In this document: in pieces, positions 42,674-42,782 of the stretch | How positions within the stretch are numbered: position 1 is the first letter of the stretch | Layout: each line of letters begins with the position of its first letter | Assembly (NCBI RefSeq): GCF_024502345.1 | Contig: NZ_JALDNN010000001.1 | Length of the DNA: 64,000 nucleotides | Strand: one strand, 5' to 3' | From: Escherichia coli | Lineage (GTDB): Bacteria; Pseudomonadota; Gammaproteobacteria; Enterobacterales; Enterobacteriaceae | Translations under genes and position numbers: made by a program | The notes under the pieces: model-generated | Seen by the model: only the letters and a program-made list of their open reading frames with translations | Told to the model about the DNA's origin: nothing | The model's database searches: none

Positions 42674-42681
42674 TCCGCCCC

Positions 42682-42718
42682 CTGGGTGTATATACAGTTA
42701 TGCTGTGAGTATATACAG
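42682..42718. promoter_or_regulatory. two tandem LexA boxes in the lexA promoter (autoregulation)
   Basis: On lexA strand: ctgtatatactcacag (42703-42718) and ctgtatatacacccag (42682-42697), 5 bp apart, immediately upstream of lexA ATG. Confidence 0.9.
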
Positions 42719-42782
42719 CAAAAGGCGATTTTGGAACCATAAACTGCACAATAAACCAGAGATTTATCGAATTCTGGAAGGG

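Follow-up and report, generated by a model that had tools for sequence, protein, structure and literature searches.

The lexA promoter-operator region of an Escherichia coli contig, with tandem LexA operators identical to those of K-12 and a terminator-like hairpin ahead of dinF

The 109-bp spacer that makes up the whole interval between dgkA and lexA (42674-42782) is the lexA promoter-operator region and carries two LexA operators in tandem, directly upstream of the lexA start codon. Here and below, the window denotes the whole stretch of DNA that was analyzed (64,000 nucleotides). Both boxes correspond to published lexA operators, and nothing about this textbook promoter-operator is new. We regard it as very nearly certain that the spacer is a promoter-operator with two LexA sites at which LexA would regulate its own gene, with dinF served from the same promoter by read-through. 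The finding is mainly a positive control, and it establishes what the window is and how it is oriented: E. coli/Shigella chromosome, in reverse complement to K-12 4.236-4.299 Mb.

Identity of the locus and comparison with K-12

The window aligns colinearly with K-12 MG1655 4,236,565-4,299,328 in reverse complement, at 98.6-98.9% identity, and its gene order, plsB / dgkA-lexA-dinF-yjbJ / zur, is that of K-12. The dgkA gene, which encodes diacylglycerol kinase (43151..42783, minus strand; open reading frame and annotation), bounds the spacer with its stop codon, and lexA follows as an open reading frame of 202 aa with a TAA stop (42673..42065, minus strand). The encoded LexA is 100% identical to that of K-12 and matches the TIGR00498 equivalog model over its full length at 289.5 bits (cut-off 110.95). 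It is also a full-length match to the PDB LexA chains 1jhh and 3jso (E ~1e-129), and it keeps the Ala84-Gly85 cleavage site together with Ser119 and Lys156. Judged from its sequence, LexA is intact, as is the autoregulatory circuit of this SOS master regulator.

A sequence-only reading of this DNA had identified the locus as that of lexA and dinF and had described it as free of disruption. Colinearity with K-12, the identical LexA and the TIGR00498 match bear out the former statement; the intact LexA and the state of the spacer bear out the latter. That reading had also named a comparison with the K-12 lexA promoter as a check, and the spacer proves to be base-for-base identical (100% over 109 bp) to the DNA upstream of b4043, including the boxes, the gap between them, the promoter hexamers and the leader. 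Beyond the spacer, the differences from K-12 are synonymous changes only within lexA, a single base in the loop of the hairpin that follows lexA (~42038), and two extra IS1 insertions in the surrounding chromosome. At ~42038 the coding strand has A here and T in K-12, two other E. coli and E. albertii; the base lies in a 4-nt loop and leaves the stem unaffected.

The same region can be followed through the species and into its nearest relatives. Between this DNA and E. albertii, the spacer differs at 2 positions only, and lexA differs at dozens of synonymous sites. The 67-bp core from the -35 hexamer through the ATG occurs exactly in 5332 of 5425 complete E. coli genomes. The best match to the lexA region is 99.7%, and none of the complete E. 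coli genomes matches it at 100%; with the IS1-disrupted genes described below, this suggests a Shigella or IS1-rich E. coli lineage outside the genomes searched. Among the 5426 complete E. coli assemblies, the lexA region is on a plasmid-labelled record in one and finds no match in another; oddities of assembly or labelling may account for both.

Sequence and layout of the tandem operators

All three genes, dgkA, lexA and dinF, lie on the minus strand. The sequence-only reading had rightly placed the boxes upstream of the lexA ATG and had left this shared orientation unstated. Operator 1, the ATG-distal box (42703..42718, minus strand), reads CTGTGAGTATATACAG on the plus strand and CTGTATATACTCACAG on the minus strand, contains the -10 hexamer, and agrees with CTGT-N8-ACAG with 0 mismatches; the corresponding 20-mer, TGCTGTATATACTCACAGCA, spans 42720..42701. 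Operator 2, the ATG-proximal box (42682..42697, minus strand), reads CTGGGTGTATATACAG on the plus strand and CTGTATATACACCCAG on the minus strand, which is the lexA coding strand, and its 20-mer, AACTGTATATACACCCAGGG, spans 42699..42680. This second box lies in the predicted 5' UTR, where it abuts a purine run for ribosome binding, and its 1 mismatch to the consensus is a CCAG half-site of a kind common in genuine boxes. Five base pairs separate the operators (42698-42702), and their starts are 21 bp apart, or about two helical turns. Direct reading of the DNA shows that the positions (42682-42697 and 42703-42718) and the 5-bp spacing reported for these two SOS boxes were correct. The lexA gene is described as having two SOS boxes (PMC2994835), and ACTGTATATACACCCAGG is the box given for lexA,dinF in PMC3009722 Table 7.

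The consensus CTGT-N8-ACAG, with one mismatch or fewer, has 17 matches in the 64-kb window against 17.4 expected, which is no enrichment. Since the bare consensus is uninformative alone, it was replaced by a symmetric position weight matrix (PWM) for which 11 SOS boxes listed in PMC3009722 Table 7, all from genes other than lexA, served as training sites. A scan with a LexA matrix was the other check that had been named beforehand, and it recovered both boxes, operator 2 at rank 1 in the window (19.4 bits) and operator 1 at rank 3 (15.8 bits). Rank 2 is taken by the SOS box of uvrA/ssb (25795-25812, ACTGTATATTCATTCAGG, 18.7 bits), which is a genuine box, scores 15.2 bits once removed from the training set, and is the sole further site above 15.7 bits in the window. 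Two sites of 14.9 bits, one in the fdhF-yjcO spacer (2141-2158) and one overlapping the xylE ATG (58306-58323), were treated as chance matches because their score is too low to be rare by chance and each resembles a single training site (uvrB, uvrA/ssb).

Conservation of the operators across species

To follow the operators beyond E. coli, we collected lexA loci from one-genome-per-species contigs by means of a degenerate pattern in the coding sequence, which gave 120 loci; anchoring the search on a coding motif instead of on the operators avoided circularity. Tandem PWM-positive boxes, 16-21 bp apart from start to start, are present in 98 of the 110 species with enough upstream DNA, and not one of these 110 lexA loci is without a box. 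Spacings of 19, 20 and 21 bp account for 54, 17 and 22 loci, respectively, and are typical of Pseudomonas, Vibrionaceae and Enterobacterales in that order. As lineages differ within this range of 19-21 bp, strict helical phasing of the two sites is not required.

Within an alignment of 24 Enterobacterales species, CTGTATATACTCAC of operator 1, which includes the -10 hexamer, is invariant in 24/24, and ACTGTATA and CAGGG of operator 2 are likewise invariant, whereas upstream of the -35 the spacer varies. Both operators thereby appear as a clean phylogenetic footprint. Adjacency of dgkA and lexA is maintained in Enterobacterales and Vibrionaceae.

Promoter anatomy and proposed autoregulation

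A sigma-70-type promoter is predicted to drive lexA on the minus strand, with TTCCAA as its -35 (42736..42731), a 17-nt spacer, and TATACT as its -10 (42713..42708). The putative -35 hexamer has 3/6 matches to TTGACA and is moderately conserved across enterics (TTCCAA/TTTCAA/TTCCCA), and the putative -10 hexamer, inside operator 1, is invariant in 24 species. A consensus promoter scan made no call at the lexA promoter, since the -35 matches at only 3/6 positions and the scanner needs 4/6; the assignment therefore draws on conservation and spacing. In this promoter, placed from hexamers and conservation only, the predicted -10 is within operator 1 and the predicted leader holds operator 2. Transcription would start at ~42701 on the minus strand, 28 nt before the ATG, a position predicted from the spacing and from the K-12 literature. 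After operator 2 and before the lexA ATG at 42673 comes a purine run on the minus strand, AGGGGGCGGA, which would serve in ribosome binding.

For this very sequence, binding of LexA and occlusion of the promoter are well established. Two LexA dimers would bind the two 16-bp palindromes, one dimer site covering the -10 and the predicted start when operator 1 is occupied, and the other covering roughly +3 to +20 of the leader when operator 2 is occupied. RNA polymerase would be blocked by the bound LexA, and LexA would in this way repress its own synthesis (negative autoregulation). Upon DNA damage, RecA-ssDNA filaments would bring about self-cleavage of LexA at Ala84-Gly85, which would leave the operators empty and raise lexA transcription, and repression would be restored after the inducing signal ends. 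Ongoing lexA transcription resets the SOS system once the inducing signal is gone (PMC6590174), and LexA binding is reported for the identical K-12 sequence (PMC2994835, PMC3009722, PMC6590174). For binding by LexA, the start site, promoter occlusion and read-through into dinF, we infer from established knowledge or the literature. The proposal of the sequence-only reading that lexA is autoregulated through its tandem operators is thus supported, at the level of sequence, by identity with K-12 and by the published lexA operators.

A scan of Rfam at gathering thresholds returned no RNA family in or near the spacer. The spacer RNA folds into an AU-rich hairpin across the dgkA stop (z = -2.5), which was considered as a dgkA terminator and rejected, being without a U-run and not complementary in Citrobacter.

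The lexA-dinF junction and the start of dinF

Between lexA and dinF, which share a strand and have no gene between them, the gap is 18 nt with the K-12 start and 72 nt with the conserved one. It contains a terminator-like hairpin (42054..42015, minus strand) consisting of a 13-bp GC-rich stem with a 4-nt loop (42054..42025) followed by UUUGUUUUUC. The RNA fold has a free energy of -24.9 kcal/mol (z = -3.7), with a U-run after the stem. Of the 24 Enterobacterales loci, 13 have a hairpin with a T-rich tail after lexA under strict terminator criteria, the hairpin sequences being unrelated. A simple operon has no terminator between its genes; here a hairpin and a U-run stand between lexA and dinF, so that co-transcription must be by read-through.

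The position of this hairpin bears on where dinF begins. The open reading frame of dinF has an in-frame ATG at 42046, at a distance of exactly 18 nt from the lexA stop, which is the curated start of K-12 b4044 (459 aa), and the frame is open from there in the four E. coli sequences compared. Were this the true start, dinF would be tightly coupled to lexA and the hairpin would be without terminator function. However, the ATG at 42046 lies in the stem of that stable hairpin with its U-run, and the extra 18 codons of the 459-aa DinF are encoded by the hairpin and the T-run. Positions 1-440 of the NCBIfam DinF model NF007690 align to residues 19-458, so that the model begins at residue 19, and in three E. 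coli genomes PGAP places the start at Met19 (441 aa). The upstream ATG is no longer in frame in E. albertii, owing to a 1-nt deletion, and there the Met19 ATG is preserved along with its context. The conserved start M-x-(F/L)-(L/F)-T/S-x-x-D-K-A-L-W has stop codons ahead of it in Citrobacter, Enterobacter and Klebsiella, where the distance from lexA to dinF is 10 to ~200 nt.

With this evidence, a tightly coupled start at 42046 is unlikely. Translation of dinF, a MATE transporter (41992..40667, minus strand), most probably begins at the conserved Met19, the ATG at 41992..41990, 72 nt after the lexA stop. The sequence-only reading had put the start of dinF 18 nt after the lexA stop; an in-frame ATG is indeed found at that very distance, but as the real start it gives way to the conserved Met19 at 72 nt. 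For annotation, this means that dinF in the K-12 style (459 aa) probably includes 18 codons too many. In the literature, we found no described lexA terminator and no experimentally mapped dinF start.

A possible third LexA site

Upstream of the two operators is a degenerate SOS-like palindrome, TCTGGTTTATTGTGCAGT (42760..42743, minus strand; 7.9-8.0 bits, rank 10), which starts 41 bp upstream of operator 1 and is situated upstream of the -35, at -59 to -42. It could in principle be a third, weak LexA site that joins operators 1 and 2 in repression. A comparison of 52 offsets across 98 loci lends this some support, as sites of at least 7 bits are confined to offsets 40-41, apart from one locus at 25, and three unrelated marine gammaproteobacterial loci have third boxes of 18.6 bits at offset 40. 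The palindrome nevertheless scores far less than real boxes do, and no better than chance for the window. Being homologous, the cases in Escherichia and Enterobacter do not count as independent, and in Citrobacter a 1-bp deletion within the palindrome breaks the CTG-N10-CAG register. Its position and T-richness fit an UP-like element equally well. After the comparison across the 98 loci, we judged that 42743-42760 is probably not an operator, and a part for it in repression is very unlikely. Footprinting in K-12 is not known to have shown more than two LexA sites at lexA.

Transcription of dinF

If dinF were expressed mainly from a promoter of its own, with lexA transcripts ending at the hairpin, the two genes would be neighbors and not an operon. 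The strong terminator-like hairpin with its U-run directly after lexA speaks for such an arrangement, as do the similar hairpins in many enterics and the distance of ~1 kb between lexA and dinF in sampled Vibrionaceae loci. Against it, a consensus promoter scan and the PWM, both of them crude, detected no promoter-like site and no SOS box between lexA and dinF, and yet dinF is SOS-induced alongside lexA, the two genes being induced in parallel by ciprofloxacin (PMC11002266 Table 1). Tiling arrays recorded a single continuous UV-induced lexA-dinF transcript (PMC3009722 Fig. 4), RNA polymerase occupancy rises across lexA-dinF (PMC3739934 Fig. 3), and in review dinF is stated to have no operator of its own and to be co-transcribed with lexA (PMC6590174). 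An independent dinF promoter as the main source of its expression is accordingly very improbable.

The most likely arrangement is co-transcription through a partial terminator and not tight coupling, in which dinF would be expressed from the lexA promoter by those transcripts that pass the post-lexA hairpin. Of the operon coupling that the sequence-only reading had proposed for lexA and dinF, co-transcription is therefore upheld by the literature, while the tight 18-nt coupling is not, given the hairpin and the conserved start at 72 nt. A fuller account can be put forward tentatively, at somewhat less than an even chance. Here, lexA-dinF would not be a simple operon; the positionally conserved hairpin would act as a partial stop that yields a high lexA:dinF ratio, dinF would be reached by read-through only, and the 18 N-terminal codons of the K-12 DinF would be an annotation artefact. 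A weaker addition to the same account is that 42743-42760 may be a vestigial or auxiliary LexA site. In practice, the terminator-like hairpin at the junction should be kept in mind if dinF serves as a reporter of the lexA promoter.

Chance occurrence of the palindromes

That the palindromes are chance AT-rich promoter sequence with no role in LexA binding might be suggested by the lack of enrichment of the simple consensus, but it is effectively refuted by the matrix scores of the two boxes against a chance rate of 0.067 sites of at least 15.7 bits per 64 kb (300 first-order-Markov random windows), by the invariance or near-invariance of the boxes amid variable flanking spacer DNA in 24 Enterobacterales and the tandem boxes in most species sampled, and by the identity of the sequence with the experimentally characterized K-12 operators (PMC2994835, PMC3009722). 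The tandem pair was absent from all 300 random windows, with an expectation of ~7e-7 per window.

Other features of the window

Two IS1 insertions disrupt lamB and pdeC. The first copy (768 bp, 51341-52108) interrupts lamB, the gene for maltoporin and phage lambda receptor, relative to K-12, with a 9-bp target duplication, ACCGAAGCC, and its junction is shared by none of the 5426 complete E. coli genomes. The second (22879-23646) is in pdeC (yjcC, a c-di-GMP phosphodiesterase), with the target duplication AACTGTCGC, and an open reading frame fragment from it matches the NCBIfam IS1 transposase model. The two copies are identical at 763/768 positions and lie in opposite orientation. An IS1 in pdeC occurs in a few of the 5426 E. 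coli genomes searched, in cases that are non-identical and for which the same site is not demonstrable.

Between gltP and yjcO, a block of ~113-bp tandem repeats (2895-3156) has fewer copies than in K-12. Its repeat units match the REP-derived naRNA4 family of Rfam (RF02564), which has further matches at 13615, 50394 and 55400. Rfam also identified the small RNA sraL/ryjA beside soxR (20925-21065) and the selenocysteine insertion element of fdhF (375-429), both expected for the region.

Comparison with known systems

The recA-recX pair resembles lexA-dinF in that the downstream gene, which lacks an operator, relies on the SOS promoter of the gene before it, whereas recA has a single box against the two at lexA. 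Read-through of an inter-gene hairpin at recA-recX would be a further resemblance. A footnote to Table 1 of PMC6590174 pairs dinF/lexA with recX/recA. Colicin operons likewise place two LexA dimer sites on one promoter (PMC2994835). Their boxes overlap and there is no detectable basal expression, whereas the lexA boxes are 5 bp apart and basal expression is kept (PMC2994835). The closest likeness in layout lies with lexA itself in other lineages. In Vibrionaceae and Pseudomonas, lexA also has two SOS boxes directly upstream, the upstream box with a TATA(C/A)T core that resembles a -10 and the proximal box 20-30 nt before the start codon. These loci differ from the present one in their box spacing, which is 20 bp in Vibrionaceae and 19 bp in Pseudomonas against 21 bp here, and in that dinF is not adjacent to lexA.
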